A stretch of 64,000 bases of DNA from an uncultured Actinomycetota bacterium (GCA_964481885.1 CAYZUS010000009.1:4576-68575), one strand, 5' to 3'; shown: positions 34,662 to 48,941, counted from the first letter of the stretch. Made by a program: numbers and translations. The notes: a model not told the origin generated them from the letters alone.

Positions 34662-37640
34662 TCACTTTGACAATATTTCTATTGCCTTGTCAACCAGCCG
34701 AGGATCAAACTGGGTGCCGGCGCATCTTTTAAGCTCTGCGATTGCGTCTTCCCTGCTCATTGCCGGCTTATACACCCGACCGCTTGTCATGACATCGTAA
34801 GCATCGACAATAAGTATAATTCGGGAAATAACAGGTATGGAATCTCCGCTTATTCCCAGTGGATAACCACTGCCATCGAAGTTTTCGTGGCAGGAAAGAA
34901 TGCTCTTGGCAATATGGGAAATCTGCTGTGAGGACTGGGCAATATTATACCCTATCTCAGGATGCCTTTTTATAACTGCCCATTCTTTTTCAGTTAACTT
35001 GCCTTTTTTAAGCAGTATCTTTTCAGGGATGGCAACTTTGCCTATGTCATGAAGTGATGCAAGAAGTGCAAGCTCATCTAATTGATGGGCGGGCAATTTG
35101 ATTGATTTTCCCAGTTTTGTTGCAAAATCATGCATCCTGTCAGCATGCTCCTTGGTTTCGTTGCTTTTTTCATAAAGAGCCTGTTCGAGGGCAAAAATAA
35201 TCGAGCTTGTCAGGCTTTCTTTCTGGGCAAGTTTATTTTTATACATATTGCTTTCCGCATCTATGACAACTGTCTGTATATCCTCATCAGGTCTTTCTTT
35301 TCTTGAAGTACCAATAGAGATACTTACAGGGATCTTTTGGCTGTTTGTCTTGGCACATTCCTTTTTTATCATTCCCACAATCTCTTCAGTATCTGAAATG
35401 GCAGTTTCAGGCAGCAGCAATACAAATTCATCTCCGCCCCAGTGGGCAAGTATGTCGTCAGGGCGGCATACTTTTTTGAATATTTCCGCAGTCTTTTTTA
35501 GTAACTTGTCCCCCTCGGTATGGCCAAAAACATCATTTATTATCTTAAGGCCATTTAAATCACACATTATAAAGCTAATAGGAAGATGTCTTTCTGTATC
35601 AAGTCTTTTTAATTCTTCCTCAAAAAACCTGCGGTTATACAGTCCTGTCATATAGTCATGAAAACCCAAATAGATAATTTCGTCCTCTGCTTTTTTACGT
35701 TCGGTGATATCATTAATACTGGACAGAATAAATGCTTCACTATTGATATGGATGATTTGTGCAGAGAATAGACAAATTATGACTTCTCCATTCTTTTTTC
35801 TAAACTGAAACTCCTTGTCTTTGACTTCAGTACCCTCTTTAAGTGCAGATACCACCATCTCACGGTTTTCATTGTTTACCCACATGTTAAGACTTATTGA
35901 TGAATCAGCAATGGCCTCTTCCCCGGTAAAACCGGAAATAGACGCAAAAGCGTCATTGACTTCAATGAATTTTCCATCTTTTACACTAGTAATGGTGATG
36001 GCATAAGACGAAGTCTTAAAAGCCTTGGAAAACTTCTCGGCACTCTCCCGCAAGGCTTCCTCAGCTTTTTTACGCTTGTTAATGTCAGCGTGTGTTCCAC
36101 TCATCCATAGTGGTTTTTCGTCAGGGGTCCGGGAAATTACTTTTCCCCTGTCATGTACCCAAACCCAGCTTCCATCTTTATGCCTCATTCGGCATTCGAC
36201 GTCATAATAATCTATTTCCTCTGAAAAAACCTTACCCAGCTGCTCATTGGATTTATTAATATCATCGGGATGCGCAAATCTCTCCCATGTCTCTATACTG
36301 ACAGGTGATATTTCAGCGAGCTTATATCCTATAATCTCGGCCCATCGGTCACTAAATACTGTTTCTCCGGTCTGAACGTTCCATTCCCATGTCCCCACAT
36401 TAGTGCCTTCAAGGATATTTACCAATCTAACATTGAGATTATTCAGCTTGAGTTCAGCCGCCTTTTTTAAAGACAGTTGGAGAAGCAGAAAGATGATCAG
36501 CAGCGTTTCGGAGATAATGAAAACTATCGCAGTAATAATCTGCCATTTATATAAATCCCAGGTACTCAGATTTTTGTTAATTACAATGCTCCCGGCAGGA
36601 AGGTCCGCTTCTTTAATTCCCCACCTCTTCATTTCATTCCAGTCAAAATAGTTTTTGTTTTTGCTGGTTACGGCCTGAATTTCAGATGGTTTTTTTCCGC
36701 TTAATATCTGAAGAGCTATCCCTGAAGCATTTTCACTGATGTCTGCATAACTTATCAGATTTCCCCCCAGAATACCCTTGCCTATAAATGTATCGTACAT
36801 CCCATATATTGGCGCCCTGGATACCTTGCTTAACTGCAACACAACTTCCAGCGGAATAAAAGCTTTTCCTTCGCCATCCATATTAAATGAAACAAAAAAC
36901 ACTGCGGTCCGGGCCGGTAGTGAGGCCAATTTCTTTTGTACCTCATCGATACTAAAATCTTCAAGCAAAGTGACTTTAATTTTTTGAGTATATTCCTGGA
37001 GAGCATTTTTTGCTGCATCTTTGTAAAACAGATCCTGTTTGCTTGTCCCTGTGATAACAACGATTTCTTCTACGTCCGGCTGCACTTTCAGGATGATCTC
37101 TATGTTACTTTTTATATCCAGGCTTTTAAAGTTGCCCGTTACATTTGACTTTAAGTCCGCAGCTTTCAGCTTTCCCTCAGTAATACTGCAAAAGACAAAA
37201 GGAAGTCCGGGGAACAACTCATCCCCATATTGAGCAATAAAATCCCAGGATATATCGTCCATAACCATTACCAGATCCAGGTCATACCCGGAGTATTTTT
37301 CCTTCAGCAATTCCATCGTCATTTTTTGAATGGATTCCGATTTAAACCGGTTTACTTCAAGATATTCGCTGTAAAGAGAAATCGAAAAAATGTCAGAATT
37401 TTTCAGGATTTTTGAGATTGTTTGCTCCATTATCATATTGACGGGAAGGAATTGGTTATCGCTATAGAGCAGAAGTACTTTTTTTGGAATCTTTTCGGTC
37501 CTTGCGAAAATAGAAGCGACTGAAAAATGGAATAAAATGGCAAGAAGCAGAAACGCCCCTAGAAATATTGCCGAAAGCTTGATTGCTTTTTTTATTGCCA
37601 TCTCTGTATTTTCCTCGACTCTTATCCTACCCTGCTTCAA
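34662..37640 (-). CDS. Membrane sensor with a periplasmic solute-binding-like domain, PAS domains, a GGDEF domain and an HD-GYP domain
   Basis: N-terminal TM, an extracytoplasmic domain of about 300 aa and a second TM. PAS/PAC repeats follow. GGDEF motif (…FGHTEGDKLL…HWGGDEFVLLL). HD-GYP motif (…HADRMHDFA…LHDIGKVAIP…HENFDGSGYPLG…). Confidence 0.85.
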   Translation of the reverse strand: MKQGRIRVEENTEMAIKKAIKLSAIFLGAFLLLAILFHFSVASIFARTEKIPKKVLLLYSDNQFLPVNMIMEQTISKILKNSDIFSISLYSEYLEVNRFKSESIQKMTMELLKEKYSGYDLDLVMVMDDISWDFIAQYGDELFPGLPFVFCSITEGKLKAADLKSNVTGNFKSLDIKSNIEIILKVQPDVEEIVVITGTSKQDLFYKDAAKNALQEYTQKIKVTLLEDFSIDEVQKKLASLPARTAVFFVSFNMDGEGKAFIPLEVVLQLSKVSRAPIYGMYDTFIGKGILGGNLISYADISENASGIALQILSGKKPSEIQAVTSKNKNYFDWNEMKRWGIKEADLPAGSIVINKNLSTWDLYKWQIITAIVFIISETLLIIFLLLQLSLKKAAELKLNNLNVRLVNILEGTNVGTWEWNVQTGETVFSDRWAEIIGYKLAEISPVSIETWERFAHPDDINKSNEQLGKVFSEEIDYYDVECRMRHKDGSWVWVHDRGKVISRTPDEKPLWMSGTHADINKRKKAEEALRESAEKFSKAFKTSSYAITITSVKDGKFIEVNDAFASISGFTGEEAIADSSISLNMWVNNENREMVVSALKEGTEVKDKEFQFRKKNGEVIICLFSAQIIHINSEAFILSSINDITERKKAEDEIIYLGFHDYMTGLYNRRFFEEELKRLDTERHLPISFIMCDLNGLKIINDVFGHTEGDKLLKKTAEIFKKVCRPDDILAHWGGDEFVLLLPETAISDTEEIVGMIKKECAKTNSQKIPVSISIGTSRKERPDEDIQTVVIDAESNMYKNKLAQKESLTSSIIFALEQALYEKSNETKEHADRMHDFATKLGKSIKLPAHQLDELALLASLHDIGKVAIPEKILLKKGKLTEKEWAVIKRHPEIGYNIAQSSQQISHIAKSILSCHENFDGSGYPLGISGDSIPVISRIILIVDAYDVMTSGRVYKPAMSREDAIAELKRCAGTQFDPRLVDKAIEILSK

Positions 37641-39858: not shown

Positions 39859-40467
39859 TTACCTGCTCATGACTTCCAGTGAATAGTCTGCTGCCAAATC
39901 CTGTGCAATCGACATGCTGTCCGGCTTTTTTCCCTGTTCCTTCTTTTTATTTTTTCCATCCGCCCTGCTCTCACCGCTATCTGTTTTATCTGTGCATTCT
40001 TCGCCAGTTATTCTTTCCGGCCTGCCCTCTAAGCTATTCTCTCCATTTGTCCTGCCTTCATAGTTATTTGTTCCGTTCGGTCTTCCTTCATTATTGTTTG
40101 CTGCGTTTATTCTTCCTTCATAATTATTTGCTTTGTTAAACTCAAGGCTTAGTGCGGCCACATCTGCCGTGATGTTTACAATATTGTATTTTTTGCCATC
40201 CTTGTTTTCCCAGCTCCTTAAGTTCAAATGCCCGCCTACCATTATCCTGTCGCCTTTCTTTAAAGAGCCGGCACAGTTTTCAGCAAGATGATTCCAAACA
40301 GTAATGTTAAAAAAATCCACAACGCTGTTTTCATCACCATTTGCGTCCTTCCACCTTTTGTTTACAGCCAGGCCCATTTCTGTGATGGCCATACCCTCAT
40401 TTGTGTATCTTAATTCCGGATCCCTTGTTAAATTTCCAAGTAAATAGATTTGATTTAAATTAGCCAA
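39859..40467 (-). CDS. ssb: Single-stranded DNA-binding protein with a non-canonical C-terminus
   Basis: N-terminal OB fold (MANLNQIYLLGNLTRDPELRYT…FNITVWN…). The linker has 4x NNYEGRxNG repeats. The protein ends …DYSLEVMSR rather than the acidic DDDIPF tip. Confidence 0.8.
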   Translation of the reverse strand: MANLNQIYLLGNLTRDPELRYTNEGMAITEMGLAVNKRWKDANGDENSVVDFFNITVWNHLAENCAGSLKKGDRIMVGGHLNLRSWENKDGKKYNIVNITADVAALSLEFNKANNYEGRINAANNNEGRPNGTNNYEGRTNGENSLEGRPERITGEECTDKTDSGESRADGKNKKKEQGKKPDSMSIAQDLAADYSLEVMSR

Positions 40468-41405: not shown

Positions 41406-41613
41406 TTATATCGGTTCTATAAGTTATGTTTTATGTAATTGATCAGTTCCTGCTGATTATTTAAATTTTTGTTGAATTAATTGTTAAAATTCAGATTGAA
41501 AACTTTTCACTCCTGGCTGTTTTAGCCAATTATTCAGCATAAATTTGTTAATTTTGTCAGGACTCAATATTATCAAGTTGAGCCTGCAATGATGTTTAAT
41601 ATAAATAATGACT

Positions 41614-41648
41614 TAGTAGTAGTAATAATAATAATAATAATAATGATG
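41614..41648. repeat. Trinucleotide microsatellite (TAG)2(TAA)7 in the flp-tadE intergenic region
   Basis: ttagtagtagtaataataataataataatgatg. Confidence 0.9.
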
Positions 41649-41758
41649 TGAGGGTCACTTCAATAAACCGGATATTTGTCGTTCGCCTGTCTTTAGCGCG
41701 GCTCATCAGTTTTTACTGCTGCATGCCGGTTTCTTACTGCAGCCCTCCCAACTGTTTT

Positions 41759-41956
41759 TTAGACAAGCCCTGATATTTTACTGAAAACCTTTGAAATAAG
41801 ATCAATTATCATGGGTTTTCCTACTGCAACGAGAACCGCACTTATAATGCCTGCGATAACCAGCACAAGTGCATATTCTATTGTTGACTGTCCACGTGCG
41901 TTTGACAGTTTAAGTTTTTGGCCGATTTTTAAAATTACTGTATTTATCTTAATCAC
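41759..41956 (-). CDS. flp: Flp/Fap family type IVb pilin
   Basis: Prepilin peptidase motif G-QSTIEYALVLVIAG (Flp motif G/xxxxEY) followed by a hydrophobic helix. 65 aa. Confidence 0.8.
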   Translation of the reverse strand: MIKINTVILKIGQKLKLSNARGQSTIEYALVLVIAGIISAVLVAVGKPMIIDLISKVFSKISGLV

Positions 41957-42114
41957 CTCCTTTTTTTTAATTTTAACCGTCTGTAGATCACCTCCTTTTT
42001 TAATTTACTTGCCTGCAAATCACACCTTCTCCTTCTCCTTTTTCTTTAAATTTAATCATCTGCAGGCAGCATTCTTTTTTTTAAATTTTGTTACCTGCAA
42101 ACCACCTCCTTTCC
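41952..42114. promoter_or_regulatory. Four degenerate tandem copies of a leader element, each carrying a Shine-Dalgarno-like GGAGGTGAT (minus-strand sense) plus an A-rich block, upstream of flp
   Basis: Plus-strand units begin atcacctcc at 41952 and 41988, atcacaccttctcc at 42020 and accacctcc at 42101. Each is followed by a T-run and a (g)cctgca(a/g) block. Only the first precedes a start codon. Confidence 0.5.
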
Positions 42115-42146
42115 AACCTTATACAAATAAATATTTAATCGATGAG

Positions 42147-42971
42147 TTAACCAAAGTTTAAATAACTGCCAGCAATCGAAAAAATGAGGGGACCTCCCAC
42201 AAGCAAAATGAATGCAGGAAGTATCAAAAAGACTAATGGAAAAAGCAGGATAACTGAACTTCTCCTGGATGCTGCCTCATGTTTTTGTGTTGCCTCAAAT
42301 CTGATATATTTTGACTGCAGACTTAATAAATCACTGATTGATGAACCATACTTTTCTGCCTGTATAAGAAGAAAAAGAAAATTCCTGAAATTTCCGGGGT
42401 CAGTTAAATTAACCGTATTATTAAAAGCATCTGTCCTGCCTATTCCAAAATCTATTTCCTTTAGGAATTTTTTTAATGCAGCGCAGATGTTTCCATCGTA
42501 TTTTTCAGATACTATTTTTATTGAGTTATAAATATTCTGCCCTGCGAGTGTTGCGATTTGAAGAAGGTCAATTATGTAGGGCAGATCCTTGTTGAATTCT
42601 TTAATTCTTCGCCTGCTTATATAATTTAATATAAAGTCAGGTACAAAAAATCCGGCAGCCGCAGATACTGCTCCGACTAAAACCATAAACATGATATTTT
42701 GCAAAAAAAATAACGAGAAAAAAGCTGCCAGAAAAGCTGCCAGAAACTTGTAGCCTATCAGGATATTCAAACTCCTTGCCAAACCATCACTGCAGTTATC
42801 CCCGATCCATTCTCTTGAACTGTCGGTTAAAAATGCTCTGTCTGCAATTGACTGGTATTTTTTTAAAATCCGGCCATTTAAAAATATCTTTAAAGCTGCT
42901 CCGGTTTTTTCAGCGAACCTGTTAAAAATATTTACATTTTTTTTCGAATATGTCCTTTTTTTATCAATCAC
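42147..42971 (-). CDS. tadC: Tad pilus inner-membrane platform protein TadC (T2SS-F domain)
   Basis: T2SSF-type polytopic membrane protein. It sits next to tadB and overlaps it by 8 nt. Confidence 0.8.
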   Translation of the reverse strand: MIDKKRTYSKKNVNIFNRFAEKTGAALKIFLNGRILKKYQSIADRAFLTDSSREWIGDNCSDGLARSLNILIGYKFLAAFLAAFFSLFFLQNIMFMVLVGAVSAAAGFFVPDFILNYISRRRIKEFNKDLPYIIDLLQIATLAGQNIYNSIKIVSEKYDGNICAALKKFLKEIDFGIGRTDAFNNTVNLTDPGNFRNFLFLLIQAEKYGSSISDLLSLQSKYIRFEATQKHEAASRRSSVILLFPLVFLILPAFILLVGGPLIFSIAGSYLNFG

Positions 42972-48048: not shown

Positions 48049-48561
48049 TTACACTTTCACTTTTATGGATGACTTCACTAATTGATTTTTTGGGAATAGA
48101 ATTATGTTATTTCCAGTCATTGTCGCAGATTTTACCAGTATTCCTTCAAATCCGGATTCATGAGCAGCCCTGGCTAAGATGTTTGGTAAACCGATTTCAT
48201 CTGATCTGTATACCGTGCCTGCCAAAAGATCATCTTCTGTCAGATCAAGTATTTTTAAGTTTTCCTGTGAAGTTAAATCAAGAATTAAAGAAAAATTTAT
48301 TTCCAGCTCAAACACCTTAAACAAATTTTCAATTATTATTTCATCATCAACCTTTCTCTTTAGTTCTTCAATGCAGACTTTCTTACTTTCGCTAAGATAC
48401 AAAGAATTAAATTCACCTTTTATATGCCATCTGCCGGATACTTTTTCATTGCCTTCTGTGGAAAGAGGGTCATTGTATTGCCTGGCAATTGCCCTGTAGC
48501 AGGTACAATTGATTCCCTTTGGGCTAATACTCTGGAGTTTTTTCTTAAAGTCTTTATCCAA
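48049..48561 (-). CDS. RES-domain toxin of a RES-Xre toxin-antitoxin pair
   Basis: …CYRAI…GRWHIKGEFNSLYLSESKKVCIEEL…GILVKSA…. The Arg, Glu and Ser positions and the spacing fit a RES domain. It lies immediately downstream of a DUF2384/Xre antitoxin gene. Confidence 0.75.
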   Translation of the reverse strand: MDKDFKKKLQSISPKGINCTCYRAIARQYNDPLSTEGNEKVSGRWHIKGEFNSLYLSESKKVCIEELKRKVDDEIIIENLFKVFELEINFSLILDLTSQENLKILDLTEDDLLAGTVYRSDEIGLPNILARAAHESGFEGILVKSATMTGNNIILFPKNQLVKSSIKVKV

Positions 48562-48575
48562 TTGTCAGCGGATTG

Positions 48576-48941
48576 TTAACTGGCTATGCCTAATTTAAAA
48601 CCATTCAGCAGGTCTATTATTTCTTCAAGGCCTTCTTCTGTGCTTTGCGCTGAAATAATTTGCTTTACAGGTGTTCTGCCATTTAAGGACTTATTAGGCT
48701 TATTTAACCATACTGATATTTTACTTTGCGTTCCAAAAACAGCCAGCAGGATTTTGCAAAGCTCATCAATTCTGTCCAGCACAATTCGCGATTGCGTATT
48801 TGGGTTAACGGTTTTTGTTTCCCAGCGGATTACATTACGCTCACTAACACCCGATATTTGCGCAAATACTCTTTGGGTAAAACCCAATGTGCTTCTTAAT
48901 TCTTTTATATCTTTTTCTTTTTCAAGTGCAGATGTAACCAT
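48576..48941 (-). CDS. Xre-family HTH / DUF2384 antitoxin (MbcA/ParS-like)
   Basis: N-terminal HTH (…LGFTQRVFAQISGVSERNVIRWE…). C-terminal DUF2384-like toxin-binding region (…WLNKPNKSLNGRTPVKQI…GLEEIIDLLNGF…). The gap to the RES gene is 14 nt. Confidence 0.75.
   Translation of the reverse strand: MVTSALEKEKDIKELRSTLGFTQRVFAQISGVSERNVIRWETKTVNPNTQSRIVLDRIDELCKILLAVFGTQSKISVWLNKPNKSLNGRTPVKQIISAQSTEEGLEEIIDLLNGFKLGIAS

Follow-up and report, generated by a model that had tools for sequence, protein, structure and literature searches.

The stretch of DNA analysed here, 64,000 nucleotides (nt) from an uncultured Actinomycetota bacterium (GCA_964481885.1 CAYZUS010000009.1:4576-68575) and called the window below, carries on its minus strand a tad pilus operon of the Gram-positive type, in which RcpC/CpaB, a TadZ-like ATPase, TadA/CpaF, TadB, TadC, flp, TadE and a TadG-like protein follow one another. 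Between tadC and flp, the gene for the prepilin, lies a spacer of 190 nt, and the subject of this study is a set of four units of 32-47 nt each that follow one another within this spacer as a tandem array (42114-41952, minus strand) with extended Shine-Dalgarno (SD) sequences. The closest genome match to the locus is a metagenome-assembled genome of Candidatus Humimicrobiales (L001), a member of a basal class of Actinomycetota, with a TadA identity of 85%, and the G+C content of the window (38%) is consistent with this class. The match of the flp product to Pfam Flp_Fap is weak (E = 6.2e-05, 23.1 bits, cut-off 32.2), and DUF4244 is matched with E = 1.8e-04. The gene sits inside the tad locus, its homologues are labelled 'Flp pilus assembly pilin Flp' by the Joint Genome Institute (JGI), and its product carries the processing motif RG↓QSTIEYALVLVIAGII, that is the canonical G↓XXXXEY (RG↓QSTIEY), followed by a hydrophobic helix. 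The open reading frame (ORF) comprises 62-65 codons and ends at 41759. Cleavage of the prepilin leader at G↓Q is established Flp biology; here, a 19-aa leader, (I/M)NTVILKIGQKLKLSNARG, is predicted to be cleaved off at G↓QSTIEY after codon 41893-41891, leaving a mature pilin of 43 aa.

The original prediction had described four tandem leader repeats with an SD in each. The tandem arrangement stands, while the SDs are unequally preserved: three are perfect and extended (GGAGG at 42109, 41995 and 41960), one is degenerate and one, at the 3' end of the first unit, is lost and now reads AAAAAAAAGAATG. Read in the sense of flp, a unit consists of (C/T)T(G/A)CAG(G/A), an A/T-rich stretch, an A-run and GGAGGTGAT. 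A repeat search places five copies in register from 42115 to 41926. Successive copies lie 35, 32, 47 and 35 nt apart at identities of 61-73%, and the fifth copy is the first 10 codons of flp itself. Tandem Repeats Finder (TRF) picks up only the two best copies (period 32, 2.2 copies) and, in the degenerate unit, a (CCTTCT)2.7 hexamer repeat. The first SD of the array lies 33 nt downstream of the tadC stop codon. A peptide-coding repeat was considered and rejected, because the periods are not multiples of 3 and the short upstream open reading frames (uORFs) within the array are not conserved. Read on the plus strand, each unit (ATCACCTCCTTT) resembles the 16S rRNA 3' tail itself. On the same strand, an ORF of 116 aa with low-complexity sequence (41811-42161) runs across flp and the array; its frame is open because a conserved gene occupies the opposite strand.

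The sequence shared by the units is closely confined to this leader. In the 128 kb formed by both strands of the window, AAGGAGGTG occurs three times, each time inside the 160-nt array, against 0.38 occurrences expected from shuffles, and three of the seven GGAGGTG motifs of the window belong to the array. Complements of the 16S rRNA 3' tail of at least 10 nt are found three times in the leader and nowhere else in the 128 kb, and the window genes other than flp have mostly a weak SD or none. The two perfect upstream SDs (42113-42103 and 41998-41986) complement GAUCACCUCCUUUCU over their whole length; their distances to the proximal SD are 149 and 35 nt, and no in-frame start follows either of them.

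For comparison we used Ca. Humimicrobiales-like Actinomycetota loci with a Flp identity of 36 to 94%: the genome locus L001, 24 metagenome loci (L081-L104) and 11 loci obtained by exact-protein look-ups (L105-L115). A genome contig scan supplied 79 other tad loci, mostly from Proteobacteria and with at most 51% TadA identity, which served as negative controls only. All 27 non-redundant ingroup leaders with sufficient upstream sequence contain at least two extended SDs, at a core-to-core spacing of 30-43 nt (median 38). The conserved stretch is 11-15 nt long and is the exact complement of the 16S rRNA 3' tail (AGAAAGGAGGTGATC). The distal SD equals or exceeds the proximal one in length, with 14-15 nt of perfect complementarity to GAUCACCUCCUUUCU in L094, L099 and L107. 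Across 29 non-redundant clade loci, perfect 16S-tail complements of at least 10 nt number 47 in about 6 kb of flp leaders and one in 322 kb of other sequence from these loci and the window, and this single match is the outermost unit of the array of L001 itself. The pattern AAGGAGGTGA-N20-35-AAGGAGGTGA is restricted to the flp clade among 115 loci, with no occurrence in the 79 other tad loci. The one feature kept throughout the clade is a long complementarity to the 16S tail at two or more places that are about one ribosome footprint apart; strong retention concerns only the proximal SD and the one before it. The number of SDs ranges from two to about eight over thirty related loci and varies even within the sub-clade of the window: there are two in L110, three in L084, four in L081, four to five in the window and about eight in L115. 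In L001, where some 100 nt were duplicated recently, TRF counts 6.4 copies of a unit of 34 nt.

Table 1 Features of the tad locus and of the repeat array upstream of flp in the window
Feature	Position	Strand	Basis or remark
RcpC/CpaB	46929-46138	-	tad operon order
TadZ-like ATPase	45994-45098	-	tad operon order
TadA/CpaF	45040-43709	-	tad operon order
TadB	43737-42964	-	tad operon order
tadC, T2SSF-family platform protein	42147..42971	-	Pfam T2SSF E = 4.9e-13
Conserved block GATTAAATATTTATTTGT	42123..42140	-	between tadC stop and first SD
Distal extended SD GAAAGGAGGTG	42103..42113 (GGAGG 42109-42105)	-	11-nt perfect complement of 16S 3' tail
Unit 1 (TTGCAGG...A8...)	42056..42100	-	possible 14-codon uORF; 3' SD decayed to GAATG
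Unit 2 (CTGCAG ATG ATT AAA TTT AAA...)	42000..42059	-	ancestral MIKFK start retained; possible 19-codon uORF
Degenerate SD GGAGAAGGAGAAGGTG of unit 2	42038-42023	-	internal hexamer duplication
Penultimate extended SD AAAGGAGGTGATC	41986..41998 (GGAGG 41995-41991)	-	13-nt perfect complement of 16S tail
Proximal extended SD AAAGGAGGTGAT, 12 nt	41952..41963 (GGAGG 41960-41956)	-	putative functional flp ribosome-binding site
flp prepilin	41759..41947	-	Pfam Flp_Fap, DUF4244, G↓XXXXEY, tad-locus context
TadE-like pseudopilin	41405-40944	-	Pfam TadE E = 2e-13; downstream of flp
TadG-like pseudopilin	40956-40513	-	Pfam Tad E = 1.8e-08; downstream of flp

According to the original prediction, only the last unit is followed by the ATG of flp. 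No ATG is present there. The first canonical start codon of the flp ORF is a GTG (41956-41954) that overlaps the last G of GGAGG, at zero spacing from the SD core, whereas an ATA (41947-41945, minus strand) lies in frame 8 nt after GGAGG, behind the 12-nt SD. In the relatives, the codon at this site is ATA in 19 of 30 loci, ATC in five, ATT in three and ATG in three. The 27 ingroup loci other than L105 all have ATA, ATC or ATT at +8 or +5 from the proximal GGAGG and in the pilin frame. L105 (AGGAGGTGGACATGTTAGTA) and L106 (AGGAGGTGGACATATTAGTA) have near-identical leaders with ATG and ATA, respectively, at the same site, and the outgroups L102 and L103, with a single weak SD, have ATG. The GTG was rejected as start because of its zero SD spacing, because L112 reads GGAGGTT and so has no GTG at all, and because L105 places its ATG 5 nt past the core. 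Due to the exchange of ATG and ATA between L105 and L106, the ATG of the outgroups and the missing GTG of L112, we consider ATA 41947-41945 as the most likely start codon of flp. With methionine in place of isoleucine, the leaders of the family begin with MKFLK..., MKLLK... or MNTVILK..., like ordinary Flp signal peptides, and the two codons between the GTG and the proposed start are hypervariable. Database entries for this pilin family span 40 to 101 aa, because gene callers misplace the start of these pilins, either to the GTG within the SD or to codons further upstream. In Staphylococcus aureus, infC, ccpN and cvfC1 have conserved AUA and AUU starts, all with extended SDs, which reach ~10-30% of the yield of AUG (PMC13009471). 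In E. coli, AUA, AUC and AUU yield 1-2% of AUG (bioRxiv 10.1101/063800).

The sequence of the units points to their origin. Each upstream unit contains an SD, a spacer, a start-like codon (ATG, ATA, ATT, GTT or ACG), the string xxT AAA TTT AAA AAA and then the next SD. Unit 2 of the window reads ATG ATT AAA TTT AAA and would encode the N-terminus MIKFK, whose ATG serves at least 12 close relatives as an in-frame start upstream of the pilin start. In the penultimate unit of the window, the homologous codon is ACG, and the preceding TTG of the relatives is replaced by CTA. Based on this resemblance to the flp initiation region (SD, start-like codon, MIKFK remnant and the fifth copy in flp itself), the units are tandem segmental duplications of the flp translation-initiation region and not relics of whole genes. 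The suggestion that they are decayed leaders of lost pilin genes therefore holds in so far as a flp leader and start region was duplicated. Tandem flp paralogues are common in tad loci, and the units do resemble a flp leader plus its first codons, as would be expected if only the 5' leaders of former paralogues were left. However, the units are only 32-47 nt long and abut each other, no remnant of the hydrophobic coding sequence of a mature pilin lies between them in any of 30 loci, and no relative has a second flp at this position. The missing remnant and the missing second flp rule out, for practical purposes, that whole genes were lost here, and we regard this version as extremely improbable.

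A structured RNA element is not supported either. Rfam searches returned nothing relevant, neither for the whole window at the gathering threshold nor for 41650-42250 at E <= 10. Over 27 leaders the mean z-score of folding is -0.18, with no conserved hairpin that would present the motifs, and the SDs are no more accessible than their surroundings. The leader of the window as such (251 nt) folds with z = -1.33. A 170-nt sub-window reaches z = -2.7, due to a hairpin of CTGCAG palindromes that exists in the window only. The corresponding inverted repeat of 11 nt (42058-42068 and 42010-42020, 91% complementary) connects the CTGCAG cores of adjacent units and loops out the degenerate SD, and it is absent from the relatives.

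These results bear directly on translational control of the CsrA/RsmA type, which the original prediction had derived from the repeated GGA elements. In such a scheme, a CsrA dimer would bridge two GGA sites, occlude the proximal SD and repress translation of the pilin. CsrA represses B. subtilis hag in this manner, by bridging GGA sites and occluding the SD, and hag, like flp, encodes a filament subunit. The flp leader shares with the CsrA-regulated leaders of glgC, pgaA and hag multiple GGA motifs, one of which overlaps the functional SD; AAGGAGGU resembles the CsrA SELEX (systematic evolution of ligands by exponential enrichment) core ARGGAUGU, and a CsrA dimer can span sites that are 30-43 nt apart. 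Flagellar clusters, where fliW-csrA can occur, are moreover frequent in basal Actinobacteria, Ca. Humimicrobiia among them (PMC10746217), which also counts for CsrA, although the supplements of that study do not list CsrA for Humimicrobiia. Four observations nevertheless disfavour this mechanism. Conservation extends beyond GGA over the whole complement of the 16S tail (up to 15 nt). In six SDs from five lineages GGAGG has changed to GGGGG, by which G·U pairing with CCUCC is kept and GGA is lost, so that GGA appears dispensable. Hairpins that would present the sites are not conserved, and tblastn with the CsrA proteins of B. subtilis and E. coli found no csrA in the window (64 kb) and none in the clade loci (130 kb), which together are a small part of any genome. 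We therefore regard regulation by CsrA as very unlikely.

If the upstream copies are to act on translation or stability, they must be part of the flp message. The scan detected neither a sigma-70-like promoter nor a terminator in the tadC-flp spacer on the flp strand, and since no terminator-like site separates the two genes, read-through should place the array in the mRNA. In L096, L101, L105 and L106, both SDs are preceded by a promoter-like element, TTTACA-17-TAAATT. Where flp is the first gene of its locus, this element is conserved ~25 nt upstream of the first SD, and at least two SDs are kept there too. Because of the missing terminator and the position of the promoter-like element, the SDs are expected to be transcribed together with flp in both arrangements. 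The block GATTAAATATTTATTTGT is common to L001, L081, L084 and L110 while the surrounding spacer varies; a role as internal promoter or as site of RNase processing is conceivable.

The reading frames within the array could suggest that the leader is translated, either as uORFs with coupling of termination and reinitiation as in a bicistronic message, or from several in-frame starts whose output adds up. The latter would be without consequence for the product, because the leader is cleaved at G↓Q and any in-frame start yields the same pilin. The window contains a chain of three uORFs: the first (42100-42056) starts with TTG, and its TGA overlaps the ATG of the second (42059-42000) as ATGA at 42059-42056, while the third (42018-41953) stops at a TGA (41955-41953) within the last SD, 5 nt before the ATA. 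The uORFs of L084 and L081 likewise stop at the TGA contained in the next SD. A canonical in-frame start follows the distal SD in L001, L081, L082, L083, L085, L097, L099, L105, L110 and L113, and an in-frame ATG behind the penultimate SD gives the N-terminus MIKFKKKEV in at least 12 close relatives. Between the two SDs, 19 of 27 loci have an open flp frame, compared with 7 and 7 for the other frames, but this bias drops to roughly 9-10 of 15 when independent lineages are counted. Neither the presence of uORFs nor their length, frame or peptide is conserved, and this includes the uORF of unit 1, whose TTG lies only 4 nt past GGAGG, a short spacing. What follows the distal SD ranges from uORFs of 1-17 codons or in-frame ATG, TTG or GTG to nothing usable in L087, L094 and L107. 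None of the upstream SDs of the window is followed by an in-frame start, and behind the penultimate one the codons CTA CAG ACG stand where relatives have TTG..ATG, with no start codon at functional spacing. The distance between the SDs is not a multiple of 3, and it shifts by 1-2 nt between near-identical strains: L107, L108 and L109 differ in the lengths of the A-run and the G-run between the SDs, with spacings of 41 and 43 nt, and protein P0055 implies a 42-nt variant. Such differences reflect slippage in homopolymers, by which the reading frame between the SDs is shifted. A function by leader translation or by additional starts is therefore improbable in our view. A further close relative, P0001 (98% identical), for which gene coordinates only are available, has a gap of 184 nt where the window has 190 nt; the loss of one GGAGAA hexamer could account for this difference.

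Slippage could also mean that the extra copies are of no use at all. They would then be neutral, minisatellite-like debris of replication slippage in an A-rich region flanked by SDs, the three upstream copies of the window would be idle, and function would reside in the proximal SD only and, in the relatives, in the penultimate SD with its ATG. The variation among close relatives from two to ~8 copies, the recent duplication in L001 and the different A-run lengths of the near-identical L107 and L109 fit this explanation, as do the degenerate outer SDs of the window (units 1 and 2), L082 and L115 and the lack of any conserved uORF or reading frame. It is difficult to reconcile with the retention of at least two near-perfect extended SDs in all 27 non-redundant leaders, down to 66% Flp identity, and with distal SDs whose complementarity often extends over 12-15 nt while the flanks diverge freely. 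In the window, 11 nt of the SD at 42109 and 13 nt of the SD at 41995 are still perfect, whereas the rest of the units is only 61-73% identical, which points to purifying selection on the SD itself. We thus consider neutral debris possible but unlikely.

Of the three options offered by the original prediction, namely CsrA/RsmA-type control, standby ribosome sites and leaders of lost pilin genes, standby sites fit best, and its statement that this is an unusual 5' untranslated region for a major pilin holds. With moderate confidence we propose that the upstream copies serve as docking sites for the 30S subunit, similar to stabilising Shine-Dalgarno (STAB-SD) sequences, polypurine stabilisers or standby sites, for a pilin message with a weak start. 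Each unit comprises an extended SD and a start codon, with a short spacer between them, followed by ~7 A-rich codons (M-x-K-F-K-K-K), and its length is about that of one ribosome footprint; a 30S initiation complex covers roughly 30-40 nt. In this genome, the pilin would be driven by the last copy only, whose 12-nt SD could set the 30S subunit on the weak AUA 8 nt downstream. The upstream copies, with 11-13 nt of complementarity to 16S rRNA and no usable in-frame start, are most likely docking sites for 30S that are start-less or lead into a short uORF. Ribosomes docked there would stay on the leader of that part of the tadABC-flp transcript which encodes the pilin, where they might shield this part from decay that depends on the 5' end, and the docking sites might also feed the weak AUA site. 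As a result, the major pilin could be made in excess over the products of the machinery genes, by a higher stability of its mRNA, a higher rate of translation or both.

Several points weigh against this proposal. The function of the array is deduced from sequence: direct observation covers the repeats, their complementarity to 16S rRNA, their restriction to flp, their conservation and spacing in the relatives and the exchange of ATG and ATA at the start site, whereas the binding of 30S subunits to the upstream copies, the presence of these copies in the mRNA and their effect on stability or translation are inferred. The predicted accessibility of the SDs is about that of the leader in general (mean unpaired probability 0.52 versus 0.49). 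The penultimate SD with its in-frame ATG in at least 12 relatives may be a second genuine start and not a start-less stabiliser. The outer copies decay, as seen from the lost SD of unit 1 and the degenerate SD of unit 2 in the window and from weak SDs such as GAGGTAAT and GGAGTAAT in L082 and L115, and therefore not every copy can be under selection. Finally, a weak start codon is counter-intuitive on a gene that is expected to be highly expressed.

Similar elements are known from other systems. STAB-SDs and polypurine stabilisers have been described for B. thuringiensis cry3Aa, phage SP82, B. subtilis gsiB, aprE and hbs and mycobacterial katG. Among these, the STAB-SD of cry3Aa is treated together with extra SDs upstream of cry genes in PMC12970973. 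As in flp, the leaders of these genes contain an SD-like complement of 16S rRNA that is separate from the functional ribosome-binding site. They belong to very highly expressed genes of Gram-positive lineages, a further likeness to flp. In cry3Aa and katG, the stabiliser acts on a transcript processed from a longer RNA, which matches the position of flp downstream of tadABC; for katG, this is a polypurine sequence on the processed mRNA of mycobacteria (PMC2358910), and on hbs mRNA initiating ribosomes block RNase J1 (PMC5737220). In contrast to the one element of a STAB-SD, the flp leader contains two to ~8 copies in a regular array of 30-43 nt. The copies duplicate the initiation region of the gene itself, the complementarity is 11-15 nt compared with ~9, and the probable functional start is non-AUG. 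The likeness to AUH starts directed by extended SDs (infC AUU/AUA; S. aureus ccpN AUA and cvfC1 AUU; PMC13009471) consists in an AUA, AUU or AUC at correct spacing behind an unusually long SD, both of which are conserved. Those genes encode low-level regulators of Bacillota, whereas flp encodes a major structural pilin of a basal actinobacterial class and has an additional array of SDs upstream. With ribosome standby sites (tisB; models of the MS2 coat gene), the flp leader shares an unstructured segment upstream of the true start that could bind ribosomes and raise the local concentration of 30S. While classical standby sites are single-stranded, lack an SD and offset a structured ribosome-binding site, the flp leader has perfect SDs and no significant structure. 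In our literature search for natural tandem or multiple SD arrays, the study on cry genes was the only find. Each ingredient is known by itself, be it the STAB-SD-like stabiliser, the standby site or the AUH start directed by an extended SD. What we did not find described is their combination: a regular array of perfect SDs that varies in copy number and derives from the initiation region of its own gene, is conserved with a pilin family in an uncultured actinobacterial class and precedes a conserved non-AUG start of a major structural protein.

The surroundings of the operon contain further features. A gene for a single-stranded DNA-binding protein (SSB; 39859-40467, minus strand) directly follows the TadE- and TadG-like genes, as it does in every clade locus with sufficient flank (including L105-L114), and this adjacency hints at a Tad pilus for DNA uptake of the competence type. 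Tad-dependent transformation has reportedly been observed in Micrococcus luteus. The spacer between flp and tadE (41406-41758, minus strand) is AT-rich and, with ~350 nt, unusually long, it carries a (TAA)7 microsatellite at 41623-41644, and no terminator-like site was detected in it; in the equivalent spacer of L001 (8247-8334), a 15-nt unit is repeated 5.9 times. Just upstream of the tad locus, a RES-domain toxin is paired with an Xre/MbcA/ParS-type antitoxin (48049-48941, minus strand). A large signalling protein (34662-37640, minus strand) with periplasmic-binding-like, PAS, GGDEF and HD-GYP-type HD_5 domains is encoded a few kb from the pilus operon and is a protein of cyclic di-GMP (c-di-GMP) turnover.

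We speculate further that the start-less and unusually strong SDs, spaced at the footprint of the 30S subunit, form a ribosome landing strip on which subunits queue before an AUA that is sensitive to initiation factor 3 (IF3). The number of repeats, from 2 to ~8, would then be a heritable dial of pilin output, and if this is true, the array would be a translational analogue of phase-variable promoter repeats. We regard this extension as doubtful. If the upstream copies bind 30S as proposed, the flp leaders would be a natural and phylogenetically conserved case of tandem SDs phased at one ribosome footprint, by which the single STAB-SD is extended to an array, and this array would be linked to an entire pilin family with AUA, AUC or AUU as start codon. 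With it, a structural protein would join the short list of conserved non-AUG starts. For the organisms themselves, such an arrangement would explain how a large excess of pilin can be produced from a gene downstream of the machinery genes, in a genome mostly without strong SDs.

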